DNA of 64,000 bases, from the NCBI GenBank assembly GCA_964220215.1, contig CAXPTH010000007.1:16903-80902 (forward strand). The letters are read 5' to 3'. Every line of letters starts with the position of its first letter. Positions within the stretch are counted from its first letter, which is position 1. This stretch comes from Alteromonas sp. (GTDB lineage Bacteria; Margulisbacteria; Marinamargulisbacteria; UBA6595). A model generated the notes under the pieces. That model did no database searches and was not told the DNA's origin. It saw only the letters and a list, made by a program, of their open reading frames with translations. Shown piece by piece: positions 36,362 to 50,753 of the stretch. The position numbers and the translations under genes were made by a program.

Positions 36362-36382
36362 AACGTGCCAATACATTTGTTA

Positions 36383-37825
36383 TTAATCCTCCGCTCTCAA
36401 AAAGTCAACGATATCGATAATTCTATAAAAATAATCACGGGTAGCAAGATTGCTCGATACGCCGCCAATGTGAAATAAAACTGGAATGACAGCAAACCCT
36501 CTTGGCACTTTTAATGCTGTTACTTTATCTTGAATCTCAGATATAATCTCTACGCCTAATTCTCGGCGTTTAAATTTGAACTCACAGACAAATAAGTTTT
36601 TTGTCGTCGTTTGAATTAAGAAATCAATTTGGCAACCGGATTTGGTCGTCGACTTAGACTGCCTAAATGGACCACTCGCAATAATATCCGCCGGATTGAT
36701 GCCTATGCTTTCCAGTAGTGCCTGTCTATTTTGCAAAAGCAACTGTTCTAGCTGCAAGCCACTGTGCGCTTCAAACCCAGGCAAGCTTGATATAGCCGTA
36801 TTCTGAAATCCATTTAAATCGATTTTATTTCGCTGAGGCTCTATAAGCTTTAAATAGAAGCGCATATAAGGATCCGAGATGCGATACAGGCTCTGTTTGA
36901 GTGGTTTATTGGTTTTAAACGACCAAAGGGTTTGTTTGGATACAAAGCCAGCAATAATTAGATGTTCCATAACACTGCTTAAAGTACCGCTATGCGGGAA
37001 TCCTGTAATTTTGCGCACATCAGCGAGTGTTTTCATGCCATCTTTTAGGCTATCAAGAATTTTTTTATAAGAAGCACCTTTGCCATTAAATAAATCGTGG
37101 AAAATGCGGTCAAATTCTAAAACCAACACGCTATCTTTTTCAAAGCACAACTGTTTTATTAAATCATCTGCTGTTTGGCCAGGGACAACTTGTTCTAAAT
37201 ACCAGGGAATACCGCCTAAAATACTGAGTAATTTGTATGTATCATAATCAGAGCCTTGAAATCCTGATATACGGAGTAGTTTATTTGCCTCTGCAATCGG
37301 CAGTGGCTCTAAAGTAATCGTTCGATTAATCCGTCCAAAAAATGCCGTGCTTTTTAGGATATTTTCTTCTATCCATGTCGATACCGACCCACAGAAAACA
37401 ACCATGATCGGGAGTTGCTGTTTATCCCACCAAGCTTTGAGCTTGGGAATAAAACTGGGGTCTTTAGCGCCCATCCATGAGATTTCATCAAATAAGATGA
37501 TGTCGCCAGATTTAATATGGTTGCTTAAATGTTCAAAGGCATCCGTCCAATCTTGGAATGTAAACGGTGGTAGCTTGAGGTGGGTTGCAAGCTGGCGTGC
37601 AAAATGATCGCGCTGGCTTTGGTCATTCATGCCTTCTTGTGGTGCAAGCCCCGCAAAATCCCAAAGTTTATTTTCTGAACAGGAAGCGGCAAAGAAATTG
37701 ATTAACCGACTTTTGCCGACTCTTCGCCTGCCTTTAACAACAACTAAGTTAGGTGTTTTTTTCTTATGAAGCGCCTTTAAGCGATCCAACTCATTTTTTC
37801 GACCAATAAATGTTTGTGTTTCCAT
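36383..37825 (-). CDS. AAA ATPase with wHTH and C-terminal PD-(D/E)xK-like domain (archaeal-ATPase/DUF234 type)
   Basis: FIGRKNEL, GRRRVGKS, ILFDEISW, GGIPWYL, QIDFLI...VCEFK. Confidence 0.85.
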   Translation of the reverse strand: METQTFIGRKNELDRLKALHKKKTPNLVVVKGRRRVGKSRLINFFAASCSENKLWDFAGLAPQEGMNDQSQRDHFARQLATHLKLPPFTFQDWTDAFEHLSNHIKSGDIILFDEISWMGAKDPSFIPKLKAWWDKQQLPIMVVFCGSVSTWIEENILKSTAFFGRINRTITLEPLPIAEANKLLRISGFQGSDYDTYKLLSILGGIPWYLEQVVPGQTADDLIKQLCFEKDSVLVLEFDRIFHDLFNGKGASYKKILDSLKDGMKTLADVRKITGFPHSGTLSSVMEHLIIAGFVSKQTLWSFKTNKPLKQSLYRISDPYMRFYLKLIEPQRNKIDLNGFQNTAISSLPGFEAHSGLQLEQLLLQNRQALLESIGINPADIIASGPFRQSKSTTKSGCQIDFLIQTTTKNLFVCEFKFKRRELGVEIISEIQDKVTALKVPRGFAVIPVLFHIGGVSSNLATRDYFYRIIDIVDFLRAED

Positions 37826-37982
37826 CGTAACCTCTTATGCTTTTTTTACTAGTTATACTATAATGAGACTGGTTTTAAGTCAAGAAAAATTGCTCAAAAC
37901 GCATTTTAAATTAAAATGAGACGGCGTGACTGCGCTCGCCATTTTTCACGACGGCCCCACTATTCTCGCAAGCCATATCTAT

Positions 37983-38041
37983 CTTAAAAACAAAAAAAAC
38001 GGTTTTATTAACTAAGGGACGCTGGCTTTATGGGTGATGAT
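37983..38041 (+). repeat. ~60-bp direct repeat, copy 2 (overlaps the Fic gene stop)
   Basis: Near-identical to 36302-36361. Confidence 0.9.
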
Positions 38042-39086
38042 CGGGTTTGCTATACCAAGTTCCACGCGCTTTGCCATGACGGATCAGCAACCCTTGTTTT
38101 ACTAATTGAGACAGTCTGTTTTTAATCGTAGGTCTGGATACGCTATCAATTATAGTTTCAGCATCCTTGATGGTAATACGCTGATATTCGTCTACATACT
38201 GCATAATAAGGACGCTTTCATAAGGCAATGATGCATACGCATTGGAAGTGCTCGTTTTTGCAAGTAGGTGGTCTTTCTGCCGTTTCAATGCGTTCAGAAA
38301 AAAACGTAGCCACGGCAACCAGTCTGCTTGTTTATTTTTAAGCGTTCTTTGGGTTCTTTGCAGCGATAGGTAATAGGCATCTTTATTTTTCTCAATAATA
38401 CTTTCTAGAGAGCTATAGGGTATGTAACTATAGCCAGATTTAAGTAATAGTAAGCTAATAAGTACACGAGATAAACGACCGTTTCCATCTTGAAATGGAT
38501 GAATAGCTAAGAAAACAACATTAAAAATAGCAATGACGATTAACGGATGGTAGCTTTTATCTTCTAACGTTTCTCTTGTCCATGTGAGCAGGTCTTGAAT
38601 TTCTCTTAGCGTGTCAACTGGTGTGCTGGTTTCAAATACCACACCAAGACTCTTGCCTTCAGGGTCAAAGGCTTCAACATTGTTTGCATATTTTTTGTAT
38701 TTCCCTCTGTGCCAACTATCTTTTTCTGAGTGCCTCAATAGCATGGCATGGAATTGTTTCATGTAGTTATCCGTAAGCGATATATCTTTGTGGTTTTCAA
38801 ATATCACTTCCATAGCTTCTGCATATCCAGCTACTTCCTGTTCATCACGAGTTAGAAACGAGGCATTCCCTACGTTGCCAAGCAATGCTTCAACTTGGGC
38901 ATTATCGAGTTGGGCACCTTCAATACGAGTCGATGAACCAATGCTTTCAATAGTAGCGACATGCTTGAGTGCGTTTAATCGTTCTGGATTTTGATTGCTA
39001 CTTGCTTGCCAATTACCCTTGAACTCATCAATTTCAGTAATGAGACGGAGAAGTTCGGGCGTTATAACGAGTGATATAAGGTTCAT
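38028..39086 (-). CDS. Fic family protein with C-terminal wHTH
   Basis: HPFQDGNGRLSR canonical Fic motif; SSTRIEG inhibitory-helix-like motif. Confidence 0.92.
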   Translation of the reverse strand: MNLISLVITPELLRLITEIDEFKGNWQASSNQNPERLNALKHVATIESIGSSTRIEGAQLDNAQVEALLGNVGNASFLTRDEQEVAGYAEAMEVIFENHKDISLTDNYMKQFHAMLLRHSEKDSWHRGKYKKYANNVEAFDPEGKSLGVVFETSTPVDTLREIQDLLTWTRETLEDKSYHPLIVIAIFNVVFLAIHPFQDGNGRLSRVLISLLLLKSGYSYIPYSSLESIIEKNKDAYYLSLQRTQRTLKNKQADWLPWLRFFLNALKRQKDHLLAKTSTSNAYASLPYESVLIMQYVDEYQRITIKDAETIIDSVSRPTIKNRLSQLVKQGLLIRHGKARGTWYSKPDHHP

Positions 39087-39166
39087 AGTATTTAATTTGT
39101 TGACTACCTTATCCAATTATATCCAATAATAGCCAATATGCAAATGATTTATCCCTTTGACGACGC

Positions 39167-40498
39167 TCAGGGGGCGAAACCAAAAACGCGGCTTGTCATT
39201 GCAGGTATTTCAGGAAACTTGACCTGTTTACCACGCCCATCGAAAATTGCTTGTCTACAGGCCTGTTTAAACAATTCATCTTCATTTTCATCTAAATATT
39301 TAACAACCGCAAACAAATCAACCGTTTTTACTAATGCAATCTTGTTTATAGTGGCTACCTTTTTACATTGTTGTGTAAAGTCCACCGTTCTTTTTTTAGG
39401 GTCGTTTAGTCGTTCTGGATTACCAAATAAAATACCAAAAGGCATTTCGTCCACAATTTTATTTTCATAGGCTTGTATTAAATTGTCCGACAATTGTCTG
39501 ATTTTGCTTATCTCTATTGCTTTTTTATCCTTGCCTTCACATTCACCGATAAACCTATAGTTTTCTGGACAGCTACCAAGTACATCGAATTCACATTCAC
39601 CATCACGATGGTTTTTTGCATCATATCCTAAACGATTCAGGGCGTTAATCACAGCGTTTTCTAATGGTGTTCCTTGTTCAAAAAGCAAATCCTTTAAACC
39701 ATTTGCTTTAGCTAATTTCTTATTTAATTCATTATTTTTTAAGTTTAGCTCTTCTATTTTATGATTGTTTTTTTGTATCTCTTCTTCAATTTCAATCGCC
39801 TTTGTTAAGGAAAATTCTTCTTGATCGCTCCATTCTGGGGTCGGTGTTTTTTCCGTTTTTTCAGATAACTGCTTATCAATAGATAAAAGACAACCCTTAA
39901 GCCTATCTCCAAACTTTTGTGCGTCATCTGTCCAGCCGGAGAACTGTTTATAGTAGTTATGGTTTAGGTAAGGCAGTGTAACTATATTTCCTTTTTCTAC
40001 TTTATAGACTGCACCCAGTATCTTAGATTGATCTGTGCCCGTAAAGATCACCTCGGAAGGATTGGAACCGTCTGTCTTTTCTACATATAACTGATAGTTC
40101 AAATGGCTTTTTTTGAATGCCTTATAAAATTCAGTAAAAATAGAGTTTCCAGAAAAATTTATACGCTCTCCTTTGGCCGATGTTAAAGCACCCATATTAA
40201 TTGGTAAAAAACTATAATTATCGAATTCCCCATAAGAGACTTTTTCTGACAAAAAAACAAAGATGTTTTTTCCATATTTTAAGAAGTCTTCAATTTCTTT
40301 TTCAAACAGTGATACTGCCTCATAATCAGAATCGGATCGTAGTGAATATAATTGTTTTGGTGCGATTAAAAGAAAATCAGCATCCATTAACGACTTTCCA
40401 TCTCTGATGCAAATTAAATCCTTTGAATGACCTGGGACTTCATACCCGATTGTGAACATTCGTTTTTTATTTTCTTGGTTTACGTCTTTGTTATTCAT
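39167..40498 (-). CDS. Hypothetical protein with coiled coil and C-terminal restriction-endonuclease-like domain
   Basis: LENAV...EFDV...IGECEGKD...Q resembles a PD-(D/E)xK-type active site; start uncertain. Confidence 0.6.
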   Translation of the reverse strand: MNNKDVNQENKKRMFTIGYEVPGHSKDLICIRDGKSLMDADFLLIAPKQLYSLRSDSDYEAVSLFEKEIEDFLKYGKNIFVFLSEKVSYGEFDNYSFLPINMGALTSAKGERINFSGNSIFTEFYKAFKKSHLNYQLYVEKTDGSNPSEVIFTGTDQSKILGAVYKVEKGNIVTLPYLNHNYYKQFSGWTDDAQKFGDRLKGCLLSIDKQLSEKTEKTPTPEWSDQEEFSLTKAIEIEEEIQKNNHKIEELNLKNNELNKKLAKANGLKDLLFEQGTPLENAVINALNRLGYDAKNHRDGECEFDVLGSCPENYRFIGECEGKDKKAIEISKIRQLSDNLIQAYENKIVDEMPFGILFGNPERLNDPKKRTVDFTQQCKKVATINKIALVKTVDLFAVVKYLDENEDELFKQACRQAIFDGRGKQVKFPEIPAMTSRVFGFAP

Positions 40499-40611
40499 TT
40501 GAAATTTATTGGTATTATAGATTAGCACACTGCTCAGCGTTTTTTCTATGTTTGCAAAAATATAACCCAGAGCTGTTACATTTTCTTAAACGGATACCGC
40601 CGCTATCGGGT

Positions 40612-41748
40612 TTATCGGTTTTTTTGGATAAGCGCAAACAGGCTGGTATCTGGGTCCTGCGGGTCAAACGCGGCCAGGTCTTGGGTCGTGATTGTCAACT
40701 CAGGAAATACGTTTTGTACCATGCTCACCGAAACCGTCTCCCCCAACCGAATCTTGTCTAAGAACACATGCCGGCGAAATCGAAACGGCAACCACTGACT
40801 TTTTAACCGATTTAGCACATTTGGCAACACAGCCGAGCCATACCGAGCCACCGCCAAATACTGCGTCACCGCCGTCAATCGCTCCGCCGATACACTGGCA
40901 TCCAACCACGCATGCACACCCGGTTGCCGACGGGCTGAGTTGGCCCCCACATCCGACACCAGCACAATGTCCCATGGCGCATGCCCCACCACAATCTGCC
41001 GGTGAATCTGCGCAATCGCCCCCAGCAACGCATCCGTCACAGCCGGCACCCGAAGAATTAAAGCAGATGGCTCCGATACCGATGCCGTATACGCCGCCAC
41101 GTCCGCCGCACTGGGATTGACCAACGTGTGGGGCTTCATCAACCGAGCCGGTGGCAAAAAAATGCCCGTATCATCCTCAAACAGCGCCACAAGACTGCGC
41201 ACCACCGCCATCGGTGCAGGCGCCCCGGTTGCACCACTCAACGACGGGGGAGGGCCGTCACTCCGCCACGGCTTGGAAACCGGATAATACGGCATGGACT
41301 GAAACCACTGCCGATACTGCATCAACAAACTTGCACTGCGTTCCAATGCCGAAGCCGTTACCGTGGCCGGCAACGCATGAAACAACCGGTGCTGATTCAA
41401 CGCATACGTGTCTATGGCGGCACGAATCGACTCGCCCATGGTCGCCGTATCCGACACAGCCAGCGTCCGCACCGACGCATGCAAGTGGCCATCCACAACC
41501 ACAAGCGGGGGCATATAGGGCCACACCAAGCTGGGCAGCTGGTTCAACACCGTTTGCATGATGGGCTCCGCCCGACTGGCATCCACAATCACCGCCCGGG
41601 TTCGGCACCCAAATTGCCGAAAATGCTCGATCACATGGGCCGCCTGGCTCATGCTAATCACCCGATACGACCCACCCAACAACGCCTCAAGCGCCGACTG
41701 CACCGGCCGTCGTAGGGATATTAAAACAATCGAGTATGTGGCATCCAT
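40612..41748 (-). CDS. Hypothetical protein, possibly degenerate receiver-like domains
   Basis: 378-aa ORF with host-like composition; N-terminal beta/alpha pattern without clear acidic pocket. Confidence 0.5.
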   Translation of the reverse strand: MDATYSIVLISLRRPVQSALEALLGGSYRVISMSQAAHVIEHFRQFGCRTRAVIVDASRAEPIMQTVLNQLPSLVWPYMPPLVVVDGHLHASVRTLAVSDTATMGESIRAAIDTYALNQHRLFHALPATVTASALERSASLLMQYRQWFQSMPYYPVSKPWRSDGPPPSLSGATGAPAPMAVVRSLVALFEDDTGIFLPPARLMKPHTLVNPSAADVAAYTASVSEPSALILRVPAVTDALLGAIAQIHRQIVVGHAPWDIVLVSDVGANSARRQPGVHAWLDASVSAERLTAVTQYLAVARYGSAVLPNVLNRLKSQWLPFRFRRHVFLDKIRLGETVSVSMVQNVFPELTITTQDLAAFDPQDPDTSLFALIQKNR

Positions 41749-41856: not shown

Positions 41857-41933
<77 letters not shown>

Positions 41934-41959
41934 TACTTTTTTAGTAATATGTTTAGCCA

Positions 41960-43045
41960 TCACGCAACCTCCTTATATTCCACACGAACATCACCAGAGA
42001 TGAGTTTCGGCAAGAGTGTATCGCGTAGTTTTTCTAATGTTTGAATTTGTTTTGTGTTTGCATCTAATTTACAAAATATTTCCTCAAACATATGCAAAAC
42101 TTCTTTTTGTTTTTCTATAGGTGGTATTAAAAACTCAGAATCTTTTATAGATTGTGTTGTTAAATTAACTTGGACACCACTATTCGCCTGACTTTGAAGT
42201 TCTTTTATATCATCAAGCTGTTTTTCCTCCCAATCATCTTGTGCATTTTCGATGAAGTGGTGGCGGAAGAGGGTTTCGGCGAGGCTTTCCAGTGTTTTAT
42301 TCTGACGGTGGAGCAGGTCTATCTTATCATCCAAACTACTCAAAACCTCCCCAATAGCCTTTTGTTCTGGGAGCGGTGGAAGGGATATTTCTATTTCATT
42401 TATTATAGGAACGGTCAAGCTTGGAACTGCAGATCCAACATTCAGAGTTGTATAATTTATAGGAACTAACTGATAAAATAAAAATTTAGGATTTGCTTTC
42501 TCTTTATTAATCGTTGTCCAGAACATTGTATCGACAGTCCAGAATGGCTTGTCTTGGTACATGACGTTATTAAGCGATCCTTTTCTTGGTATTAGTATAG
42601 ATTCATCATCATATAAAAAACTATCAACAAATCTCATAAAGCCACCACTTCCAAAGCAAGGATACTGACCATTTTTTAAGTTTTTATGCTCTTTTCCATA
42701 TTTAACTTCTGCCACATCCCCCAATGTACATGTCCGCCACCCCTTCCGATAAAGAATTTTTCCTTTTGTTTTTATATGTTTTTTTAATTCATCATTATCA
42801 ATGCTATTATATGAAATAATATCAAAGAAAAAGGGGAGATAGGTTTCATCTTCAAAATGCCCTTTTATCTTTGCGGCAAGCATAAAATCCGCTTGCTCTC
42901 CCTTGATAACAATATCAATATCCGATGCTTCTTTATAGGTATCAATTGCTCGAGAACCAAAAAGCACGGCCTCTTCAACCTCTTCATAAGAAGCGAGAAC
43001 ATCCTTTATTTCTTGCAATTGTTTTTCTGATAACCCGTATTTCAT
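41960..43045 (-). CDS. hsdS: Fusion of minimal nucleotidyltransferase (MNT) and type I R-M specificity subunit; second TRD largely deleted
   Basis: N-terminal FGSRAIDTYKEASDID (GSX10DXD); then GWRTCTLGDV, LPPLPEQKAI...LDDKIDL, LRDTLLPKLISG. Confidence 0.88.
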   Translation of the reverse strand: MKYGLSEKQLQEIKDVLASYEEVEEAVLFGSRAIDTYKEASDIDIVIKGEQADFMLAAKIKGHFEDETYLPFFFDIISYNSIDNDELKKHIKTKGKILYRKGWRTCTLGDVAEVKYGKEHKNLKNGQYPCFGSGGFMRFVDSFLYDDESILIPRKGSLNNVMYQDKPFWTVDTMFWTTINKEKANPKFLFYQLVPINYTTLNVGSAVPSLTVPIINEIEISLPPLPEQKAIGEVLSSLDDKIDLLHRQNKTLESLAETLFRHHFIENAQDDWEEKQLDDIKELQSQANSGVQVNLTTQSIKDSEFLIPPIEKQKEVLHMFEEIFCKLDANTKQIQTLEKLRDTLLPKLISGDVRVEYKEVA

Positions 43046-43449
43046 AGTTCGGCTTTTAATCTTGAATATAATGTTTGTAATGATCGGCTGTATTTATCAA
43101 CGATAAACGCTAAAACCTTTTTCATTGTTTCGTGATTATATGTATGGCTGGTTTCATTTCGTATTTCTATTGATTGCATCCAAATTTCAGCATCTTGAAT
43201 CATCTCATCTTGAAAAGCGCGACGGATTGTTTGCTTGCTATTTTTTACATCATCATAGCCTTTGTTTTCTAAATAATCCTTTAGCGTTTTCCAACTTAAT
43301 TCCTGCACAATCTCAAAGGCTTGAACCAGAGCCATTTGTTCTGCTTCATCATCCCTCTCATTCAAATAACCATCCAACCGTCTTTTAAAGACCCCGTAAG
43401 CATTATTGAGATTTTGAAATCTTTGCTTCCATCTTTCTTCATTATTCAT
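43042..43449 (-). CDS. HEPN toxin (HI0074 / nucleotidyltransferase substrate-binding family)
   Basis: RWKQRF, QAFE, ELSWKTLKDYL, RNETSHTY (RX4HXY). Confidence 0.9.
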   Translation of the reverse strand: MNNEERWKQRFQNLNNAYGVFKRRLDGYLNERDDEAEQMALVQAFEIVQELSWKTLKDYLENKGYDDVKNSKQTIRRAFQDEMIQDAEIWMQSIEIRNETSHTYNHETMKKVLAFIVDKYSRSLQTLYSRLKAEL

Positions 43450-43452
43450 TGT

Positions 43453-44985
43453 CTAGCCTCCTATTTTAACCTTCTTCAACTTTTCCAATATCCGTTGGTT
43501 AAGCGCTGCTTCCTCGGCAAGTTGGCTTTCAAATTCCTTTGTCAGCTCGCTAAAGCGTTCTTTAAAGTCAAAATCATCCTCTGTTTCTTCTAAGCCGACA
43601 TAACGCCCAGGGGTGAGTACATAATCCAGTTTAGCGACTTCTTCTACTTTTACCGTTTTGCAAAACCCTGCGATGTCTTGATAGCCGTCATCCTCGCTTT
43701 TCCATTTATGGTAAGTGTCAGCCACTTTTGCAATCTCTTCATCGGAAAGTTCTTTTGTGCGGCGATTGATCAGATGCCCAAGATTGCGGGCATCAATAAA
43801 CAAGACCTCATCCCTGCGATAGGTTTTACCACGACGCATAAACCAGAGGCTTGCCGGGATTTGAGTATTTAAAAATAATTTCGCCGGTAGGTTTACAACA
43901 CAATCCACCATTCTTGCATCAATCAAGGCTTTTCGCATATCACCTTCACCCGATGATTTAGAGGTCAAGGAACCTTTCGCAAGGACAAATCCTGCCAATC
44001 CGCCTTCGGGCTTCAAGTGATATAAAAAGTGCTGTATCCATGCATAGTTGGCGTTTCCCGCCGGTGGTGTGCCATATTGCCACCGTCCGTCATTTTTCAG
44101 AAGCTCTCCGCTCCAATCATTATCATTAAATGGCGGATTAGCGATAATATAATCAGCTTTAAGGTCTTTGTGAGCATCATTAAGAAAAGAGCCTTCATTA
44201 TTCCATTTGACCTGTGAGCTATCAATTCCACGGATTGCAAGGTTCATTTTTGCCAATCGCCAAGTGGTTTGATTGCTTTCCTGTCCGTAGATTGAGATAT
44301 CGTTTACTTTCCCCTGATGTTCAGTCACAAACTTTTCAGATTGTACAAACATCCCCCCCGATCCACAGCAAGGGTCAAACACACGCCCCTTGTAAGGCTC
44401 CAGCATTTCAACAAGTAACTGAACCACTGAGCGTGGCGTATAGAACTGTCCGCCTTTCTTTCCTTCTGCAAGAGCAAACTCCCCCAAGAAATACTCAAAA
44501 ACATGACCAAGAACATCAGCACTGCGAGCCTTTGCATCCCCAAGGGCAATGTTACTAATCAGATTAATCAATCCACCCAGATTAGTTGGATCAAGATTTC
44601 CACGGGCATAAACCTTTGGCAAAACGCCTTTTAGTGATGGATTATCCTTTTCGATTGCATCCATCGCGTTATCAATATCTTTGCCAATTTCATGACCGGT
44701 TGCACGGGACTTTAGGAACGACCATCTTGCATCTTGCGGCACAAAGAAGACATTTTCCGCTTTGTATTCGTCTTTGTCTTCTGGATCTGCTCCGGCATAA
44801 TCTCCTTCGCCGTTAGTAAGTTTTTCATGAAGCTCTTCGAAGCTGTCTGAGATATATTTTAAAAACATCAAGCCCAGCACAATATGCTTGTACTCTGCGG
44901 CATCAATATTTTTACGGAGCTTATCCGCTGCTGCCCATAATTGTTTTTCGATAGGTTCGTTCTTTGCGTTATTCTGTTTTGTCAT
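43453..44985 (-). CDS. hsdM: Type I R-M N6-adenine methyltransferase subunit
   Basis: LWAAADKLR, GQFYTP, DPCCGSGGM, NPPF, LTPGRYVG. Confidence 0.96.
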   Translation of the reverse strand: MTKQNNAKNEPIEKQLWAAADKLRKNIDAAEYKHIVLGLMFLKYISDSFEELHEKLTNGEGDYAGADPEDKDEYKAENVFFVPQDARWSFLKSRATGHEIGKDIDNAMDAIEKDNPSLKGVLPKVYARGNLDPTNLGGLINLISNIALGDAKARSADVLGHVFEYFLGEFALAEGKKGGQFYTPRSVVQLLVEMLEPYKGRVFDPCCGSGGMFVQSEKFVTEHQGKVNDISIYGQESNQTTWRLAKMNLAIRGIDSSQVKWNNEGSFLNDAHKDLKADYIIANPPFNDNDWSGELLKNDGRWQYGTPPAGNANYAWIQHFLYHLKPEGGLAGFVLAKGSLTSKSSGEGDMRKALIDARMVDCVVNLPAKLFLNTQIPASLWFMRRGKTYRRDEVLFIDARNLGHLINRRTKELSDEEIAKVADTYHKWKSEDDGYQDIAGFCKTVKVEEVAKLDYVLTPGRYVGLEETEDDFDFKERFSELTKEFESQLAEEAALNQRILEKLKKVKIGG

Positions 44986-45000
44986 TTTTTATCCTATTTA

Positions 45001-45321
45001 TTAATACCTTAAAGGTTCTGTTCCTCTATTTAAAATATCAAGATAATCTCTGTAAAGAAAGATCTTGTGTCGTTCTTTGCCTGTTATTTCTTTTACAATT
45101 CCAAGATTTTCCAGGGCTGTTAAGCTTCTCATCACAGTTGGTTGAGACAGACCTGTTTTTTTACGGATTGATACTGTATTTGAAATCGGAGATTGCTGTA
45201 GATACGTGTGTATGGTCAATACCGCAGCAGCAGAATGATCAGAGTTTTCTATTCTTTTTCTGTCATTTGCAAAAATAAAGAACAAATTTTGAATTTTTTG
45301 TTCTTTGTTAAAAAATATCAA
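45001..45321 (-). pseudogene. C-terminal wHTH fragment of a Fic-family gene
   Basis: TGLSQPTV...LENLGIVKEITGKERHKIFLYRDYLDILNRGTEPL is a typical Fic C-terminus; Fic core absent. Confidence 0.65.
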
Positions 45322-45354
45322 CCATAGATGTTCTTTAGGCGTATTTTCTAAGAA

Positions 45355-45672
45355 TTAGGCCTCATCCCCACACTGATTGGCTACCCACGCCCCATACTCA
45401 GCATTCACCGTCATCACAATCCGGCCAATGCACGGAACACTGTACGGATGATGCTCCGCAATCGATGCCGATACCAAATCCGCCAACGACTCCGTTGTTT
45501 TCATCACCGCCACCCACTCCGACTCCTCGGCAATCGTCCCCGACCACATATACACCGAATCCGCCGCCACCACATTGCCACACGCAATCAGCCGAACCAA
45601 TACCAACGACCGAACCAACGCTTGCGCCACCGCCGCACTGGGGCACGGCACATAAAACAGAACTAAGTCCAT
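45355..45672 (-). CDS. cutA: Divalent-cation tolerance protein CutA
   Basis: LIACGN, SVYMWSG, MKT, HPYSVPCI. Confidence 0.9.
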   Translation of the reverse strand: MDLVLFYVPCPSAAVAQALVRSLVLVRLIACGNVVAADSVYMWSGTIAEESEWVAVMKTTESLADLVSASIAEHHPYSVPCIGRIVMTVNAEYGAWVANQCGDEA

Positions 45673-46829
45673 CGGCCGTGCATCGTATCCACAATCACCT
45701 GCGCCGCTTTCTCACACGCACCCCCAGCCCCCAACGAATCCCCAACTTTTTTCAAGGCATTGTGCACATCCATATGCCGCTGCGGATCCGTTAACAACGC
45801 AACCACCTCCGGAATAATTAAATCCGCCCGACACCGCCGTTGAAAAAACTCGGGCGCAATCTCAGCCCGCGCCATAATATTGGGTAAGGAAATATACCCC
45901 AACTCCCGAAACCGTTTGCCCATCACTATATTGGCAACAAAATAAGAAAGCGCACTCAGCCGATACGCCGCCACAAATGGGGTGCCCAAACACGCATGCT
46001 CCAAAGTAACCGTCCCCGAGGCCACCACCGATACCGCCGTATGCTGAATCAAAGCATGCTGATCCTGACACACACAGGTCACCCGTCCCGATACCCCATA
46101 GCGCTGCAACACCGAATAAATTCGGTCTAAATACACCGGCGATGATACCGATATCACCCACTGCTCAGTACTTTTAATGGCCGCCTCAACCGGCGCAATT
46201 AAACTCACAAACAACGCCAACAACTGCTTTAATTCCTGTGGCCGAGACCCCGGAAACAACGACACAATCCGCCGCGATGGATCCAGCCCGTATCGCTCAC
46301 AAAACATCTCGCGCCCATCATGCCGTCGAATTAAATCAACAATCGGATGCCCCACAAACACCGACCGCCCCCCAAGCTTAGTATAAAAGTCATGCTCCTG
46401 CGGAAAAATCGACAAAATCGTGTCCGTGTATTGAACCACATTGCGCCCCCCTTTTTCCGTCCCCCACTGCCACTCCTGCGGCGAAATATAATACAACACC
46501 GGAATGCCCAACCGCTTCGCCGCCCGAATAAACACCTGGTGATACCCCTGATAATCAATCACCACCACCGCCACGGGCTTCATGACTCGTAAAATCCACT
46601 TCATTCGAAAATACGTCACAATTAATTTTGGAATATACCGAAACGGCTCAATAAACCCAATGGTTGACGCCGTAGTCATGTCCGCTAAAACGTGTACCCC
46701 CGCCGCACGCATGCGATTGTGCCCCATGCCCACGCATTCAACATCCGGATACAAGGCCCGAACCGCTTTCGCCAAGGCCGCACCATAGTGATCCCCAGAC
46801 ACCTCACCCGCACTAATGAACAACCGCAT
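45663..46829 (-). CDS. lpxB: Lipid-A-disaccharide synthase
   Basis: SAGEVSGD, YYISPQEW, FVGHP, FPGSR, ASGTVTLE, SLPNI. Confidence 0.93.
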   Translation of the reverse strand: MRLFISAGEVSGDHYGAALAKAVRALYPDVECVGMGHNRMRAAGVHVLADMTTASTIGFIEPFRYIPKLIVTYFRMKWILRVMKPVAVVVIDYQGYHQVFIRAAKRLGIPVLYYISPQEWQWGTEKGGRNVVQYTDTILSIFPQEHDFYTKLGGRSVFVGHPIVDLIRRHDGREMFCERYGLDPSRRIVSLFPGSRPQELKQLLALFVSLIAPVEAAIKSTEQWVISVSSPVYLDRIYSVLQRYGVSGRVTCVCQDQHALIQHTAVSVVASGTVTLEHACLGTPFVAAYRLSALSYFVANIVMGKRFRELGYISLPNIMARAEIAPEFFQRRCRADLIIPEVVALLTDPQRHMDVHNALKKVGDSLGAGGACEKAAQVIVDTMHGRWT

Positions 46830-46833
46830 GCGC

Positions 46834-47565
46834 TTAACGCCCTCGCAAGGCCGCAATAGCCTGCGCATGGTTTGAAGCCCCAAACAGATACGACGCACTG
46901 ATCAAATCCGTTGCACCCGCCGCAATTAATCCCGGCGCATGGTCCGCATTCACACCCCCATCCACACTAATCACCCCATCATATACCGCCCGTAAAGCCG
47001 CAACTTTTGGCACCACCGCCGGCATAAACGCCTGGTTGGAAAACCCCGGATCCACCGACATCAACAACACAGCATCACACCCATCTAAAATGGGCTCAAT
47101 CACCGCTATGGGCGTATGAATGTTAATCACCACCGCAGCACCCATCCCCAAGTCCCTTGCCCGGCTTAAATCCGCCCGCAATTGATCCGTATTAATAACC
47201 GTTGTATATCGCGCCTGTTCCCGTATCGTCGTCACATCCACCGGCTCTTGTTGATACGCCTCCGCATGCAAATACACCAAGTCCGATCCCACTGAAGCAT
47301 AATCGGATAAATACATACCCGGATTCTCAATCATTAAATGCACCATCAACGGCAACGATGTGGCCCGCCGAATCGCCTGGATTAACACCGGACCAAACGA
47401 AATATTGGGGACCAAATGCCCGTCCATAACATCCAAATGAAAACTGTCTACCCCAGCCGCTACCATCGACCGAACCGCATCCCCCATTGCCAAAAAATCC
47501 CCAGACAAAACACTAGCGGATACGGTTACTCTTTTTTTATTATTGTTGGTTTCGATTGTTGTCAT
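46834..47565 (-). CDS. rpe: Ribulose-phosphate 3-epimerase
   Basis: HLDVMDGH, HLM, MSVDPGF, VDGG; carries an internal insertion. Confidence 0.93.
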   Translation of the reverse strand: MTTIETNNNKKRVTVSASVLSGDFLAMGDAVRSMVAAGVDSFHLDVMDGHLVPNISFGPVLIQAIRRATSLPLMVHLMIENPGMYLSDYASVGSDLVYLHAEAYQQEPVDVTTIREQARYTTVINTDQLRADLSRARDLGMGAAVVINIHTPIAVIEPILDGCDAVLLMSVDPGFSNQAFMPAVVPKVAALRAVYDGVISVDGGVNADHAPGLIAAGATDLISASYLFGASNHAQAIAALRGR

Positions 47566-47652
47566 TATTTATTTCTTGTTACTTTACCATAGTTTATAAC
47601 ATTTATCATAAATGTAGCAAAATACAAATCCTGGTTTTTAATGCCCTAAACT

Positions 47653-47682
47653 TTGACATTTCCTTGTAATTTTATGTAAAAT
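47653..47682 (+). promoter_or_regulatory. Sigma70-type promoter TTGACA-N18-TAAAAT, 7 nt before the MerR-family ATG (probably leaderless)
   Basis: Read directly. Confidence 0.6.
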
Positions 47683-47689
47683 TGAAGTC

Positions 47690-48724
47690 ATGACAAATAA
47701 ATACATAAAAACAAAAACGCCAATAAATGAACGTAAGCTATATAAAATATCTCAATTAACGTCATTGCTTGGTGTCACCGCTCGAACGGTTCGTTACTAT
47801 GATCAACTGGGTCTGCTTCCCAATGTTAAGCGCACCCCCGGGAACATGCGTTTGTTCGATGAGCAGGACGTCGCCTTGATTCAAAAGATCCGATATTTTC
47901 AAGAAAAAGAGTTTCTTCCCCTTGACGTTATTAAAGGTCGGTTATTCAAAGAAACTTCCGGGGACACCCAAACCATTGCCATTGTTGCCGATCATTTAGT
48001 GGACTATAGCCACCCCAAAATATATGCCGCATCCGGTGCCGATGACGCCAACACAGCCCAACCCGCCCGAGTTAGCGCGTACACCAACTGCTTTCAAACA
48101 CTCATTAATCAGGGATTTACCACCATTTATTCGTACCATGCAGCCTTATCGCCAAATTTTGAAGCGGCCACAATTGCGGCGGCAACCCACAAGGATTCGG
48201 CCACCATTCATGTGCTATCCACCCACAGCGTAGGCGGGGGGCACCAACTGTACGTCACAGCGATTGCCAATGTTTTGCAAGCCAGCGACTCTGAAAACGA
48301 AGTTGAACTGTACGCAGAAAAAAATAAAGGCCTCGTCTTAGACATCTTCATGAGTGATAACTTGAACCTCTTGTTTCCCACAACCGAAACCCAAACCAAA
48401 TTGCAACAAGATCTGGACACCCAACGGTCTGCCTTTAATGCCATCATGCAATTCAAAGACGATCAATTCACCTTGGTGGATTATTATCAACACAACAACG
48501 AAGCCGTTGAATCGCTGGGCTTAATTATTGAAGAAGAAGCGGCCCTGCGTGCCGGCTATTTAAATTCAATCGCCATTACCTACAATCGGCTATACGCTGA
48601 AGCCACGGCCTTAACCAATCAGTTCAAAGCAAATTACCCCAAAGCAAGTGTTTCAATTGCGCAAGCGGATCCCCACACTCAACACATGATTCAAGGGGAT
48701 TTTATTGGGATTTCAGTGCTTTAA
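47690..48724 (+). CDS. MerR-family HTH fused to a degenerate DegV-like domain
   Basis: YKISQL...GVTARTVRYYDQLGLL...RTPGNMRLF; then IAIVAD, TAQP, L..QGF..I.SYH..LS. Confidence 0.75.
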   Translation: MTNKYIKTKTPINERKLYKISQLTSLLGVTARTVRYYDQLGLLPNVKRTPGNMRLFDEQDVALIQKIRYFQEKEFLPLDVIKGRLFKETSGDTQTIAIVADHLVDYSHPKIYAASGADDANTAQPARVSAYTNCFQTLINQGFTTIYSYHAALSPNFEAATIAAATHKDSATIHVLSTHSVGGGHQLYVTAIANVLQASDSENEVELYAEKNKGLVLDIFMSDNLNLLFPTTETQTKLQQDLDTQRSAFNAIMQFKDDQFTLVDYYQHNNEAVESLGLIIEEEAALRAGYLNSIAITYNRLYAEATALTNQFKANYPKASVSIAQADPHTQHMIQGDFIGISVL

Positions 48725-49434
48725 CTCGCACGCTGCGATTGCACCCATGTCCAGTGCATGGCAATAGCACCGGCTGCACTCACATTGAGAGACGCTGTGG
48801 CCCCTGGGGTGTCAATCCGCACACACGCATCCAATTCTTTTTGAATGCGCGGCCCAATGCCTGTATGCTCATGCCCCATCACAAGGCCACAGGGGGTATG
48901 CGGCTGCCACTGCGTGAGGGTCATTGGCGCATCCACGGTGGTGCCATACAACCAAACCTGATGCTTGCGCAACGTTTGCAACGCCTGCGCAATGTTGGTC
49001 ACTTGGCACACCTGAATATGCTGGATCGCTTCCGCCGATGCGGACACCACGGTATCGGTCACCGGGCATTGCCGGTCTTTGGCATAAATCACCGCCTCAA
49101 ACCCAAACGACACCGCCGATCGAATCAACGCCCCCATGTTGTGCGGATCTTGAATATGATCCAAGATTAATAGTTTTGACTGCGCATTCAGCCCCTCCAC
49201 AACATCGGCCAACGCAACCGTCCGGGCTCGGGCCTGAATCCCCACCAGCGCATAGTCGCCATATTCTCGCTGAAACGCAACCGAAACCAAGGTCTTCACC
49301 CGAACCCCCTTGGCTTTAGCGGCTGCAATTACAGCGCGTTCCTCCCTAGACAACCGCTGCCCTTGGCACACCACCACACGGGCCAACTGCCCCCGCTGCA
49401 ACGCCCGATCAATGGCTCGGCTATCGGTGAGCAT
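48721..49434 (-). CDS. rlmB: 23S rRNA Gm2251 methyltransferase (SpoU family)
   Basis: LDHIQDPHNMGALIRSA, MGHEHTG, SLNVSAA. Confidence 0.85.
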   Translation of the reverse strand: MLTDSRAIDRALQRGQLARVVVCQGQRLSREERAVIAAAKAKGVRVKTLVSVAFQREYGDYALVGIQARARTVALADVVEGLNAQSKLLILDHIQDPHNMGALIRSAVSFGFEAVIYAKDRQCPVTDTVVSASAEAIQHIQVCQVTNIAQALQTLRKHQVWLYGTTVDAPMTLTQWQPHTPCGLVMGHEHTGIGPRIQKELDACVRIDTPGATASLNVSAAGAIAMHWTWVQSQRAS

Positions 49435-50692
49435 GCATCACCGCACACAATCGCTCAATACCATCTAATAGCTGCGCCTCTGTAATAATCAATGGCGGCA
49501 TCAGCCGAATGACCGTCCCCCCACAGGCAATCACCAACACATCGCTATCCAAGGCCGCTGCCATCACCGTTTTCACCCACTGTGGATTGGGCGCTCGGGT
49601 CGCACGATCCGCCACACACTCTATCCCGATCATCAACCCCAACCCCCGAATATCCCCCACATACGGGTGATCCGCCAACCGGTCCTGCAACACCGCCATC
49701 ACCCGATGCGCCAACGGGTTAACCGTGGGAATCAAAGGCTCCAACACCTGAATCGTTGCCCGGGCCGCCGCCGCACACACCGGGTTGCCACAATACGTCC
49801 CCCCATGCGCGCCGGTGTCCCACTTGGCCATCACCGACGCTTTGGCTGCCATGGCCCCAATCGGCATCCCCGATCCCATGCCTTTAGCCAAGGTAATGAC
49901 ATCCGGGTCCACCCCGTAGCGCTGATGGGCAAACCAATGCCCCGTACGCCCAAACCCGGTTTGAATCTCATCCAAAATAAACAGCACCCCATACTGCTGG
50001 CACAACCGTGCCACCGCTTGCAAACATGCCGCTGGGGCTGGGACATACCCGCCTTCCCCCAACATAGGCTCAATAATGACCGCCGCTAAATCCGCATGAT
50101 GCGTGGCCATGTACTCGGCCAATTGCGCCTCCCAATTGGCGATAAAAACCGCCTCAGGCTGATCCGCATGGTAGGTGTTGGGATACGGCAAAAAATCCAC
50201 CGGGCCCATGAGTGGCTGATACGTGGCGTGATACTTTGAGCTCACCGCAACCGCACCCAAACTCCGGCCATGAAACCCCCCGTCAAACGCTAAAAACCGT
50301 GGCTTTTTCGTCACAAATCGGGCCAGCTTGAGCGCCGCCTCAATCGATTCGGTACCACTTTGCGTGAAAAAGAACTGGTAGTCCGCTAGACCGGCTTGGG
50401 TTCGCAATTGCTCGGCCAATTGCACCGGCCCGTCGTAATACACAATGCCCGCACAGGCATGAATCAGCCGGCTAGCTTGGTCTTGAATCGCGTGGACCAC
50501 ATCCGGATGGCAGTGCCCAGTACTGGTAACGGCAATGCCGCTCGCCAAGTCTAAAATTTCACGCTGTTGCCCATTGGGGCCATCCGCATACAAGTACGGC
50601 CCACGCCCCCCCGTCACCGTCAAGCGACTCACATGGCTTTGCACCCCCGATAATACCCGATCACCCCGCTGGGCCAATGTCTCATCATTCAT
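49421..50692 (-). CDS. Class III PLP aminotransferase (GabT/ArgD-like)
   Basis: GHCHP, SGTES, FHGR, EPMLGEGG, DEIQTGFGRTG, AKG; start placed at MNDETL. Confidence 0.92.
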   Translation of the reverse strand: MNDETLAQRGDRVLSGVQSHVSRLTVTGGRGPYLYADGPNGQQREILDLASGIAVTSTGHCHPDVVHAIQDQASRLIHACAGIVYYDGPVQLAEQLRTQAGLADYQFFFTQSGTESIEAALKLARFVTKKPRFLAFDGGFHGRSLGAVAVSSKYHATYQPLMGPVDFLPYPNTYHADQPEAVFIANWEAQLAEYMATHHADLAAVIIEPMLGEGGYVPAPAACLQAVARLCQQYGVLFILDEIQTGFGRTGHWFAHQRYGVDPDVITLAKGMGSGMPIGAMAAKASVMAKWDTGAHGGTYCGNPVCAAAARATIQVLEPLIPTVNPLAHRVMAVLQDRLADHPYVGDIRGLGLMIGIECVADRATRAPNPQWVKTVMAAALDSDVLVIACGGTVIRLMPPLIITEAQLLDGIERLCAVMHAHR

Positions 50693-50753
50693 GCCTATTA
50701 GTATAGCATGTATGCAACAACGACACCCATGTGATACTATAAAAATAGCAGAC

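Follow-up and report, generated by a model that had tools for sequence, protein, structure and literature searches.

The window, a 64,000-nucleotide stretch of contig CAXPTH010000007.1, carries three tightly packed minus-strand genes in the order hsdM - HEPN - MNT::hsdS, with the toxin gene ahead of the antitoxin. The first (43453..44985), recognised as an open reading frame and by Pfam, encodes a type I N6-adenine methyltransferase subunit of 510 aa, the second (43042..43449) a 135-aa HEPN toxin of the HI0074 / NTase_sub_bind type, and the third (41960..43045) a 361-aa protein in which a minimal nucleotidyltransferase (MNT) antitoxin domain is fused to the specificity subunit HsdS. Between the TAG stop of hsdM and the ATG of the HEPN gene stand the letters ACA, a 3-nt gap, and the stop of the HEPN gene shares an ATGA with the start of the fusion, a 4-nt overlap, which bears out the close coupling in the original prediction. 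The other features read there from the letters are equally present: an intact RX4HXY motif in HEPN (RNETSHTY, with R97, H102 and Y104), an exact GSX10DXD motif in the HsdS reading frame (G30-S31-x10-D42-I-D44), and a frame with zero stops between MNT and the first target recognition domain (TRD1). The genes form a 3.4-3.7 kb islet at a tRNA-Arg (TCT) gene (41857..41933, plus strand), which marks the near end of the islet, 26 nt beyond the hsdS stop. At the far end lies a remnant of a SoFic-like Fic/DOC gene (45001..45321, minus strand), a C-terminal fragment matching positions 269-360 of the 361 in the PADLOC SoFic profile (5.2e-13), for which Pfam gives wHTH matches only.

The hsdM product has the N6_Mtase (4.8e-110) and HsdM_N (1.3e-28) domains that mark the HsdM subunit of type I restriction-modification (R-M) systems, matches the PADLOC model MTase_I at 5.6e-196, and keeps both the NPPF motif and the SAM motif DPCCGSGG; its score with the NCBIfam hsdM equivalog is 191.6 bits, under the cut-off of 242.75. 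Contigs from RNA libraries of two studies match hsdM, and one crosses the HEPN/MNT overlap, such matches being no proof of transcription.

The HEPN product is a single-domain protein (Pfam NTase_sub_bind, PF08780, 1.6e-33), and Pfam finds in its 135 aa no ABC-type NTPase domain of the PrrC/RloC kind. It scores 72.7 bits with the HI0074 family model TIGR01987 (cut-off 55.8) and 17.1 bits with the HepT_toxin equivalog NF047751 (cut-off 60), and by these profile scores the toxin falls in the HI0074 / NTase_sub_bind branch, not in the HepT equivalog. It combines the HEPN fold with an RX4HXY motif that includes the acceptor tyrosine, as type VII toxins do. Residues Q43, E46, R97, H102 and Y104 are all present, and each is either invariant or conserved to at least 90%; R97, N98, H102 and Y104 are invariant across 29 HEPN relatives, and the former five are invariant in eight HEPNs drawn from both MNT lineages described below. 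The closest solved relative is the HEPN of Legionella pneumophila (8XDJ; E 1.4e-20, about 45% identity), from a type VII system in which Y105 is AMPylated and Q44/E47 form a Mg2+ active site (Jin et al. 2024, Nat Commun, PMC11586414, in excerpt). The background of the original prediction therefore holds as regards the AMPylated tyrosine of RX4HXY, but catalysis in this homologue is placed at the Mg2+ site.

Residues 1-102 of the fusion (42740..43045) constitute the MNT domain, delimited by Polbeta and structure matches. Pfam gives Polbeta at residues 11-101 (2.7e-14), NTP_transf_2 (1.2e-08) and Methylase_S at 101-253 (2.7e-30). The motif residues G30, S31, D42 and D44, together with D75, are invariant in alignment A2, and the first four also in alignment A3; a GSx10DxD motif encoded beside the toxin gene is what characterises a type VII antitoxin, and here the two genes overlap by 4 nt. 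The domain, which has no C-terminal alpha-4 helix, aligns with positions 9-106 of the Legionella MNT chain 8XEH_E, 108 residues long (3.2e-12, about 34% identity), and its model superposes on 8XEO and 8XEH_E (TM 0.91-0.93, rmsd 1.2-1.3 A). With the NCBIfam equivalog MntA_antitoxin (NF047752) it scores 32.4 bits, under the cut-off of 60. The junction with TRD1 spans about 5 residues (...LYRKGW...), of which W103 is invariant in 31 sequences, and one relative (P0028) combines this MNT and this junction with another TRD1. When one fusion protein and four HEPN chains were submitted to complex prediction, three runs scored 0.60, 0.60 and 0.64, the best of three controls scored 0.00, at least 87% of contacts agreed between runs and partner pLDDT was at least 78. 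Of 157 solved complexes 116 attain the pass mark, against 2 of 215 mismatched pairs; only 18 of these solved complexes scored 0.60 or less, as did both of the mismatched pairs that passed. Since the similar complex 8XEH is already solved, the pass may simply mirror that likeness, and the prediction lends weak support to binding between the two proteins.

The HsdS part has one complete TRD, and not the two, set apart by conserved helices, that define a type I specificity subunit. TRD1 (residues 103-222, 42380..42739) is covered by Methylase_S, appears as a strand-rich domain at 104-222 in the predicted model, and makes up a half that is 88% identical to the unfused HsdS P0016. It is followed by the central conserved region CR1 (residues 223-266, 42248..42379), modelled as a long helix at 225-266 and identical in P0028, P0101 and P0016. 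Relative to every full-length homologue, about 100 residues of TRD2 have been lost in frame, leaving in alignments A1 and A5 a vestige of about 43 residues (267-309, 42119..42247) with pLDDT below 50 at residues 282-295. Both conserved helices are kept, the second being that of the C-terminal region CR2 (41960..42118 including the stop codon; predicted helix 310-350), which matches positions 314-397 of the specificity-subunit profile NF007278. No hsdR was found at the locus, bounded as it is by tRNA-Arg and host genes, or in the window's genome, where TIGR00348, PF04313 and PF18766 gave 0 matches; each of these profiles detected hsdR in 8-9 of 14 control genomes, and the genome being 82% complete, the gene may lie elsewhere. 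For the type I operon of the original prediction no hsdR was thus found in the window copy, whereas a complete one accompanies 11 of 19 fused relatives, and we regard the window copy as a reduced form of a fused type I system.

The islet is absent from one genome of the same genus (G001), where the lpxB region comes 63 nt after this tRNA-Arg, and a search of another genome (G002) did not find it either. Three metagenome contigs (L097-L099), whose flanks are 98-99% identical to the window, hold at this site an unrelated HEPN-MNT::TRD1 cassette. Within the cassette (42383..43490, minus strand; the last hsdM codons, the HEPN gene and MNT::TRD1) identity drops to 13-73% in 30-column windows, and it resumes at 42382, so that CR1 marks the right-hand breakpoint of the allele swap. 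The HEPN-MNT::TRD1 block is exchanged between strains as a cassette. The alternative allele, whose protein cluster is present on 15 contigs, likewise has intact HEPN, MNT::HsdS and hsdM without hsdR in the locus, and the TRD2-deleted tail is common to two alleles that each have an intact and different toxin-antitoxin cassette. Between the alleles hsdM shows 21 synonymous and 10 non-synonymous codon differences, 5 of the latter within the last 14 codons, inside the recombination tract; outside it about 21 synonymous differences stand against 5 non-synonymous ones, and hsdM is under purifying selection. Because of this selection, and because the cassette has been swapped in near-identical contigs, the window copy still looks alive.

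A search of species genomes for similar fusions preceded by HEPN genes spoke clearly against the possibility that the fusion was peculiar to one assembly or due to a lost stop. Among the 80 best loci with MNT relatives, 19 were fused, in about eleven phyla; a HEPN tblastn match lay directly upstream of MNT in 76 of the 80, and hsdM directly upstream in 18 of the 19 fused loci. Complete hsdR followed downstream in 11 of these 19 and a cut-off or open-ended hsdR in 2 more, the usual layout being hsdM - HEPN - MNT::hsdS - (variable defence cargo) - hsdR, with SduA_C, SLFN_AlbA_2, DUF3644, PIN and OLD + UvrD as cargo. All 19 have GSx10-11DxD and 17 have RNxxxHxY, the remaining two being a HEPN split across two frames and a partial match. 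At the protein level, 212 of 263 candidate clusters (198-632 aa) match fusion residues 1-105 at E<=1e-5; Methylase_S was found in 118 of the 120 listed among these 212, and Polbeta together with Methylase_S in 44 of 120 listed whole-protein homologues. The present annotation of such proteins is simply "restriction endonuclease subunit S"; the MNT domain is also a tacit part of one PADLOC specificity model. A second, very distant MNT lineage (P0101-type) is fused in the same manner, with hsdR in three loci (L100, L113, L118) and an open-ended hsdR in a fourth (L101). When the pair is embedded in an hsd operon, fused loci outnumber intact unfused ones by 19 to 3 in the window-type lineage (L012, L024, which an IS splits, and L032) and by 5 to 1 in the second. 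Solo relatives of the pair occur on plasmids (94 records), and the 25 listed are all annotated as separate nucleotidyltransferase and substrate-binding proteins. On the MNT tree fused and solo forms are interleaved, with 16 changes of state on the best tree; stars mark only 9 of the 85 inner branches, and these force one change only. The tree being so poorly resolved, independent origins are clear only for the P0101-type MNT. The conservation of the fusion across phyla, mostly in complete operons, supports selection for the tie between antitoxin and S subunit. Our literature search found no paper describing an MNT::HsdS fusion; the fused variant, which is widespread in bacteria, has apparently not been described before.

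Type VII HEPN/MNT pairs are among the commonest toxin-antitoxin modules. The Legionella pair (PDB 8XDJ, 8XEH, 8XEM, 8XEO) is the best match in sequence and structure for both halves of the window system: its HEPN is likewise of the NTase_sub_bind type, with the same Mg2+-site Q/E (Q43/E46 in the window) and RX4HXY tyrosine, and its MNT is also short, lacks alpha-4 and binds 1:4 to a HEPN tetramer (PMC11586414, in excerpt). However, it is a free protein of 108 residues, whereas the window MNT is the N-terminal domain of HsdS in an hsd operon, and the word "restriction" occurs 0 times in the text of that paper. In HepT/MntA of Shewanella oneidensis and HEPN/MNT of Aphanizomenon flos-aquae the MNT (oligo)AMPylates the RX4HXY tyrosine and silences the HEPN RNase (PMC7641770, in excerpt). 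MNTs of this type (PDB 5YEP, 6M6V, 7AE9) compare with the window domain at TM 0.49-0.61 and dock on the toxin through an alpha-4 helix at their C-terminus (PMC11586414, in excerpt) that the window MNT lacks; unlike in HepT/MntA the toxin gene comes first here, and the window proteins score below the equivalog cut-offs. HI0073/HI0074 of Haemophilus influenzae give the family its name, and their structures match HEPN (1JOG, E 2e-6) and MNT (1NO5, TM 0.82). The window HEPN passes the TIGR01987 cut-off of this family; HI0073 and HI0074 themselves are two separate small proteins, unlike the fused window MNT. To our knowledge HI0073/HI0074 have not been reported in an hsd operon.

A second line of defence has long been suggested as the role of HEPN genes in R-M operons, and we know of cross-talk between the two layers only for PrrC. 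PrrC, of the EcoprrI type IC locus, resembles the window toxin in being a HEPN-fold RNase within a type I hsd operon, and is kept latent by the R-M proteins (PMC3710099, in excerpt; PMC12707154). It is, however, an ABC-ATPase-HEPN fusion that is silenced non-covalently, with no MNT and no AMPylation, whereas the silencer in the window would be an enzyme domain fused to HsdS. Toxin and abortive-infection genes nested between hsd genes, as in the window's relatives, have been described (Payne et al. 2024 preprint, 10.1101/2024.01.29.577857; Anantharaman et al. 2013), but as separate genes. The main text of the preprint (10.1101/2024.01.29.577857) contains no instance of "MNT", "nucleotidyltransferase" or "HsdS", and the searched text of Anantharaman et al. 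2013 (PMC3710099) describes R-M-associated HEPN domains fused to nucleases, helicases and ATPases, not methylases, and mentions no antitoxin fused to an S subunit. Single-TRD S subunits, as in EcoDXXI and EcoR124I truncations, NgoAV and an engineered Staphylococcus aureus half-S, work as homodimers and can sustain both methylation and restriction, the site being symmetric (PMC3874165 and PMC6158711, both in excerpt). The window protein shares the single TRD, but the known half subunits end after the central conserved region, whereas it keeps both helices, has an internal TRD2 deletion and bears MNT as well.

We consider it somewhat probable that the locus is a reduced copy of a fused type VII toxin-antitoxin/type I R-M variant, with the toxin-antitoxin pair keeping an orphan methyltransferase from being lost. 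In the variant, hsdM and hsdS flank a putative HEPN RNase and MNT adenylyltransferase, the antitoxin being covalently the N-terminal domain of HsdS. By homology, HEPN would form dimers and tetramers with Mg2+-dependent RNase activity, and the HsdS-borne MNT would dock on this oligomer and AMPylate Tyr104, keeping the RNase off. The antitoxin could then be neither made nor inherited apart from hsdS, and for this reason loss, disruption or shut-off of the hsdM-HEPN-hsdS operon would leave the toxin in place when the modifier is no longer renewed. An R-M type with no addictiveness of its own would thereby be stabilised post-segregationally, and abortive infection might also result. With hsdR and most of TRD2 gone, what remains here is probably an orphan methyltransferase of HsdM and an S subunit with one TRD, which might work as a homodimer at a symmetric site.

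A guard of the PrrC kind, the idea of the original prediction, would have the HsdS-tethered MNT silence HEPN only while HsdM/HsdS(/HsdR) is intact, and phage anti-restriction proteins, by binding or disturbing the complex, would halt AMPylation, release the RNase and trigger abortive infection. Both the PrrC precedent (PMC3710099, in excerpt; PMC12707154) and the features of the relatives, namely the predominance of the fusion in hsd-embedded pairs of both lineages, the usual presence of hsdR and the abortive-infection-like cargo, argue for such a guard; yet nothing ties MNT activity to the condition of the complex, an ABC-ATPase sensor domain like that of PrrC is absent, and both population alleles keep HEPN, MNT::HsdS and hsdM intact. 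Since hsdR is absent from the loci of both alleles, the module is kept where there is no restriction to guard. We hold the guard to be unlikely, and in the window copy, for which no hsdR was found and TRD2 is deleted, the guarding of restriction is ruled out; addiction or stabilisation is no less likely in this case. An equally improbable reading has the HEPN-MNT pair hitch-hiking in hsd operons and merged with hsdS by loss of the MNT stop, with no functional consequence. Operon genes overlap or abut, so that one small change can fuse them, and the interleaving of fused and solo MNTs on the tree and the intact unfused embedded forms (L012, L032, L125) would fit. Neutrality sits poorly, however, with a fusion that persists over about eleven phyla at MNT identities to the window down to 34-37%, holds across many different TRD1 types, recurs with the very distant MNT lineage, and has a short, conserved junction with invariant W103 that P0028 retains together with MNT despite its different TRD1.

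The three genes might instead be decaying, inactive leftovers of an R-M system lost from the window's genome, as the missing hsdR (in a genome 82% complete), the deleted TRD2, the Fic fragment upstream and the patchy occurrence of the islet (absent from G001, not found in G002) would suggest. We think this rather less likely still, given three open frames with all motifs intact, the excess of synonymous changes in hsdM outside the recombination tract, the sharing of the TRD2-deleted tail by two alleles with intact, different cassettes, and the spread of the other allele's protein cluster over 15 contigs. It is very improbable that the pair is a domesticated two-protein nucleotidyltransferase in which HEPN serves as substrate-binding subunit and MNT nucleotidylates a different target, for instance an Hsd subunit, or DNA, or else a phage molecule close to the recognition site. 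The older substrate-binding reading does survive in the names of the Pfam and NCBIfam families, and HEPN-MNT pairs have been domesticated into regulatory enzymes (PMC3710099, in excerpt). Domesticated HEPNs, however, typically lose their catalytic residues (PMC3710099, in excerpt), whereas the Mg2+-site residues and acceptor tyrosine are invariant here, and the closest studied pair, that of Legionella, is a genuine toxin-antitoxin system (PMC11586414, in excerpt).

For the preferred reading, an orphan methyltransferase stabilised by its toxin-antitoxin pair, inhibition of growth by the toxin and its neutralisation by AMPylation are suggested by homology to the Legionella pair, the one homologue from which the mechanism can be transferred since the HepT and MntA equivalog cut-offs are not reached. 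Counting against this reading, AMPylation in that homologue is reportedly inefficient and binding transient (PMC11586414, in excerpt), and neutral change can be enough to fuse two genes that overlap. The missing hsdR, deleted TRD2 and adjoining Fic fragment also fit plain decay.

The fusion matters for annotation, as MNT lies hidden under subunit S names and within a PADLOC specificity model. It also raises the questions whether R-M integrity controls the toxin, whether such a pair renders type I systems addictive, and whether it favours the spread of some specificity alleles over others. Type I R-M is not addictive on its own; tentatively, and with less confidence than in the reading of the locus itself, we suggest that the fusion may make HsdS an obligate antidote, which would render a type I system self-stabilising and perhaps a trigger of abortive infection if M/S is lost, replaced or attacked. 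Conserved in more than 200 protein clusters, in many phyla and with at least two MNT lineages, the covalent link between antitoxin and HsdS offers a concrete, testable wiring.

The gene arrangement described in the original prediction, a HEPN toxin and an MNT antitoxin inside a type I restriction-modification operon, proved right in every detail when compared with ORF maps, junction sequences, Pfam and NCBIfam assignments and motifs. Three head-to-tail genes lie on the minus strand: hsdM (43453-44985; 510 aa; Pfam N6_Mtase and HsdM_N), a HEPN gene (43042-43449; 135 aa; Pfam NTase_sub_bind, 1.6e-33) and a single ORF of 361 aa (41960-43045) in which an MNT domain (Polbeta/NTP_transf_2, residues 11-101) continues into the specificity subunit HsdS (Methylase_S, residues 101-253). 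The claimed tight coupling of the genes is seen in the junction TAG-ACA-ATG between hsdM and HEPN, a 3-nt gap, and in the 4-nt overlap ATGA between HEPN and the fusion. The HEPN is assigned to the HI0074 family (NCBIfam, 72.7 bits against a cut-off of 55.8) and carries the expected RX4HXY motif as RNETSHTY, while the MNT part of the fusion carries GS-x10-DID. A scan of the locus returned promoter-like and terminator-like sites in numbers near the mean of shuffled sequences (13 against 9.6 and 5 against 3.2, respectively).

The MNT::HsdS fusion is a conserved architecture. Among the 120 best matches listed in a whole-protein search of the protein database, 44 contained both Polbeta and Methylase_S, and most of these were 432-505 aa long. 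When only residues 1-105 were used as query, 212 out of 263 candidates of 198-632 aa matched at E<=1e-5, with Methylase_S present in 118 of the 120 listed among them. The search of genomes for such fusions and for hsdR that had been proposed with the original prediction was carried out with an alignment of MNT N-termini (A2) on one genome per species, and gave at least 600 pattern matches, at least 476 of them confirmed, from which the best 80 were taken as loci. A HEPN relative directly precedes the MNT in 76 of these 80 loci, and in 19 the MNT frame continues into an HsdS, giving proteins of 447-516 aa. All but one of the 19 fused loci have hsdM directly upstream; the sequence of the exceptional locus starts 898 nt before its HEPN. 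According to record titles, the fused loci include Spirochaetota, Gammaproteobacteria, Desulfobacterota, Planctomycetota, Bacillota, Caldisericota, Calditrichota, Cyanobacteria, Patescibacteria, Chloroflexota and Elusimicrobia. In a plasmid collection, the 25 records listed of 94 held solo HEPN-MNT pairs only.

The state of hsdR in the 19 fused loci was judged by Pfam on selected downstream ORFs. A complete gene (HSDR_N, SWI2_SNF2, T1R_D3 and T1RH-like_C; 1067-1118 aa) follows in 11 loci; hsdR is open-ended in one (L014) and truncated behind a YhgA-like transposase gene in another (L010), the contig ends soon after hsdS in four (L008, L011, L017, L033), and none was found among the ORFs tested in two (L004, L027). 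The slot between hsdS and hsdR holds variable cargo, namely FRG-TPR, AAA plus S8 peptidase, SLFN_AlbA_2, DUF2326 and PIN. The AAA ATPase and S8 peptidase pair occupies 10803-14236 of L013 and 7203-10658 of L014, and in L027 (2579-6185) the cargo slot is filled by a UvrD helicase together with an OLD-like ATPase.

Unfused arrangements also occur within hsd operons: MNT and HsdS are plain separate genes in L012 and L032, a DDE transposase gene lies between them in L024, and L009 and L023 are deletion products. At 1169-2143 of L023 an MNT of the window's family is fused to the last ~120 residues of the hsdR C-terminal domain, which looks like the outcome of a deletion. Other layouts were noted in passing. 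In L006 (7781-10506) and L007 (7781-10503) a single hsd operon carries two HEPN-MNT pairs in tandem: first a solo pair (143-aa HEPN, 118-aa MNT) and, directly after it, the HEPN plus MNT::HsdS pair. L025 (8989-9855) encodes an MNT of the window's family fused to a MoCF_biosynth domain. The window's own genome has a second MNT relative on another contig (G000:C28:34748-35044; 38% identical, open frame of 115 aa), which presumably belongs to a solo HEPN-MNT pair. In a genome of the same class, two adjacent long open frames of 575 and 531 aa (G039:C1:168815-170230) match fusion residues 27-266 and 101-231, respectively, and may represent another MNT-HsdS arrangement.

A second fused lineage is represented by P0101, a protein relative of 337 aa whose MNT sits on a branch of ~10 substitutions per site in the MNT tree. 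A metagenome scan with P0101 gave 38 loci, whose layouts were read from ORF maps and Pfam. The order hsdM, HEPN (NTase_sub_bind), MNT::HsdS, DUF3644 gene and complete hsdR is found in L118; L101 has hsdM, HEPN, MNT::HsdS and an open-ended hsdR; and L122 has the same first three genes before its contig ends. HEPN and MNT::HsdS are followed by a complete hsdR in L113 and, after an SduA_C gene, in L100, and L125 is an unfused version with hsdR. The intervening genes encode a DUF3644 HEPN protein in L118 (3821-4801) and a Shedu SduA_C protein in L100 (2238-3305). Counting independent fusions on the tree of 89 MNTs was abandoned, as its 102 columns resolve too poorly: the best tree has 16 changes and the starred branches force just one. 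This tree is usable only to show how remote the P0101-type MNT is; recurrence of the fusion is therefore claimed for the P0101 lineage, and it is likely for a Bacteroidota-type group (P0045, P0005, P0053 and, from Mariniflexile maritimum, P0070).

Catalytic motifs are retained throughout. Of the 19 fused loci, 17 have RNxxxHxY; in the remaining two, the HEPN is divided between two reading frames (L004) or matched only in part (L027). The motif also occurs in all five embedded loci that are unfused and in 45 of the 52 solo loci; GSx10-11DxD is found in every one of the 19 fused MNTs. R97, N98, H102 and Y104 are invariant in 29 aligned HEPNs, with Q43 and E46 at least 90% conserved, and Q43, E46, R97, H102 and Y104 are all invariant in eight HEPNs drawn from both lineages. 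This conservation indicates that both enzymes are probably kept active.

The best PDB sequence matches of the window's proteins are a HEPN (8XDJ, E 1.4e-20) and an MNT (8XEH_E, 3.2e-12) of Legionella pneumophila. In the parts of that work consulted (Jin et al. 2024, PMC11586414), the HEPN is described as a Mg2+-dependent RNase with Q44/E47 as active site and negligible effects of R98A and H103A. The MNT is reported to (poly)AMPylate Y105 of the HEPN, and one MNT binds a HEPN tetramer (1:4), contacting it with the alpha-2 helix and the alpha2-beta3 loop. In alignment, the window MNT covers residues 9-106 of the 108-residue Legionella chain and so belongs to the same short class, in which, by analogy, the C-terminus would lie outside the toxin interface; such a free C-terminus would permit continuation into the first target-recognition domain (TRD1). 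Complex prediction with one whole fusion and four HEPN copies scored 0.60, 0.60 and 0.64, against 0.00 for the best of three controls, the runs agreeing in at least 87% of contacts with partner pLDDT of at least 78. Among 157 solved complexes, 116 reach the pass mark, as do two of 215 mismatched pairs, and scores of 0.60 or less include 18 of the 157 and both passing mismatched pairs. Since 8XEH is already solved, the prediction shows likeness rather than proof that the window copy binds, and it lends weak support to binding of a HEPN tetramer by the fusion.

The window copy is reduced. In alignments A1 and A5 its second target-recognition domain (TRD2) is ~100 residues shorter than that of all full-length relatives. 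In an AlphaFold model of the fusion (pLDDT 85.5, pTM 0.68), residues 1-100 form the MNT domain, 104-222 form TRD1, and 225-266 and 310-350 form two long helices, separated by a TRD2 vestige of ~43 residues with pLDDT <50 at 282-295. Foldseek matched the model to the HsdS structures 1YDX and 1YF2, and its N-terminal domain to the Legionella MNT antitoxin (8XEO, 8XEH_E; TM 0.91-0.93, rmsd 1.2-1.3 A). The fusion is the sole HsdS of the window's own 1.19-Mb genome (82% complete), in which TIGR00348, PF04313 and PF18766 found no hsdR. Single-TRD S subunits are reported to function as homodimers (PMC3874165, PMC6158711, each consulted in part), so by analogy the reduced enzyme may have retained methylation of a symmetric site.

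The locus ends 26 nt before tRNA-Arg (TCT; 41857..41933, plus strand), and a SoFic-like gene, present only as a C-terminal fragment, sits upstream of hsdM. This AT-rich stretch has a GC content of 34-45% against 51-60% in adjacent DNA. In G001, a genome of the same genus, the lpxB region starts 63 nt after the same tRNA-Arg, which sets the insert at ~41934-45627, or up to ~45340 if cutA is counted as host. Neither G001 (89% complete) nor the congeneric G002 (77% complete) gave a protein match to the fusion, and no att-like direct repeats of the tRNA-Arg end bracket 41934-45340. Between the Fic fragment and lpxB is cutA (45355-45672; CutA1, 4.2e-26), for which tblastn found no counterpart at the syntenic G001 locus.

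Other AT-rich or defence-type segments were observed nearby. A second AT-rich islet (36197-40528), next to tRNA-Asn and tRNA-Ser, encodes a PDC-S27-like ATPase (36383-37825; PADLOC, 2.9e-79), a SoFic-like Fic protein that is intact (38028-39116; 4.3e-46) and, at 39167-40528, a protein of 453 aa with no assigned family. The ATPase gene is bracketed by a 56-nt direct repeat (36306-36361 and 37986-38041) whose copies are 93% identical. Between both islets, a high-GC ORF of 378 aa (40612-41748) has no Pfam or NCBIfam family and is conserved in G001 at 68% DNA identity. In a lower-GC patch at 50778-52590, an AAA_21 ATPase gene (5.5e-33) and an overlapping gene for an RloB-like protein (3e-24) look like a two-gene defence-type module.

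Allelic variation at the insert was revealed by three metagenome contigs of 9.6-13.5 kb (L097, L098 and L099), which closely match the window on both sides: at 99.1-99.2% identity over 43461-50957 (hsdM and host genes beyond) and at 98.1-99.3% over 42382-40628, which comprises hsdS from the central conserved region on, including the deleted TRD2, the tRNA-Arg and the next host gene. The middle ~1.09 kb is unrelated (13-73% identity in 30-column windows) and encodes a HEPN of 144 aa (NTase_sub_bind), 31% identical to the window HEPN, and a different MNT::TRD1, that of P0101; one member of the P0101 cluster was seen on 15 contigs. The toxin travels with the MNT::TRD1 block. P0028, a relative of 484 aa, shares the junction, the conserved helices and, at 98% identity, the MNT with the window copy, and combines them with a different TRD1 and an intact TRD2. 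Taken with the allele swap, it implies that the gene is a mosaic of MNT, TRD1, central conserved helix (CR1), TRD2 and C-terminal conserved helix (CR2) that recombines at conserved joints. Both alleles at the site lack hsdR, share the TRD2 deletion and have intact toxin and antitoxin motifs. Comparison of their hsdM genes shows 21 synonymous and 10 non-synonymous codon differences. Of the non-synonymous ones, five fall within the final 14 codons, which belong to the exchanged tract; outside the tract these counts indicate purifying selection on hsdM.

Contigs from sequencing run X4, a different sample of the study that also includes the possible source runs, covered the full stretch with no differences. 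Run X5, from another study, gave a 1315-nt contig across hsdM, HEPN and the MNT start with eight differences; its other contigs fit only to 42367, 42707 or 41958 and then diverge, as expected for mosaic alleles. The idea that ten other studies (word shares 0.53-0.65) hold the alternative allele only was rejected: X5 covers all 30 bins, so the lower word share mostly reflects strain divergence. Matches to hsdM were also given by contigs of two RNA libraries, each from a different study, and one contig extends across the overlap of HEPN and MNT; such matches are not evidence of transcription.

Fused proteins are already in databases, unremarked: they are annotated as 'restriction endonuclease subunit S', and the PADLOC specificity model PDLC03138 aligns from fusion residue 14, that is, through the MNT. 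Earlier work describes HEPN genes located in R-M operons as well as embedded defence genes (PMC3710099; Payne preprint, 10.1101/2024.01.29.577857). We found no description of the MNT-HsdS fusion in the literature searched, although Figure 5 of PMC3710099, with the label 'RM_TRD', may draw it; term look-ups did not find it in the text available of PMC3710099, PMC3632139, PMC3506569, PMC12839542, PMC13000451, PMC12707154, PMC4621449 and the Payne preprint.

The evidence best supports reading the locus as a type VII toxin-antitoxin pair in which the S subunit carries the antitoxin enzyme. As to what the fusion may add, the original prediction had favoured guarding of the R-M complex in the manner of PrrC, a role that we rank second; a neutral fusion, adding no role, ranks third. 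Placed first is stabilisation of, or addiction to, the hsdM/hsdS module, which fits both the retention of the locus without hsdR and the joint transfer of toxin and antitoxin.
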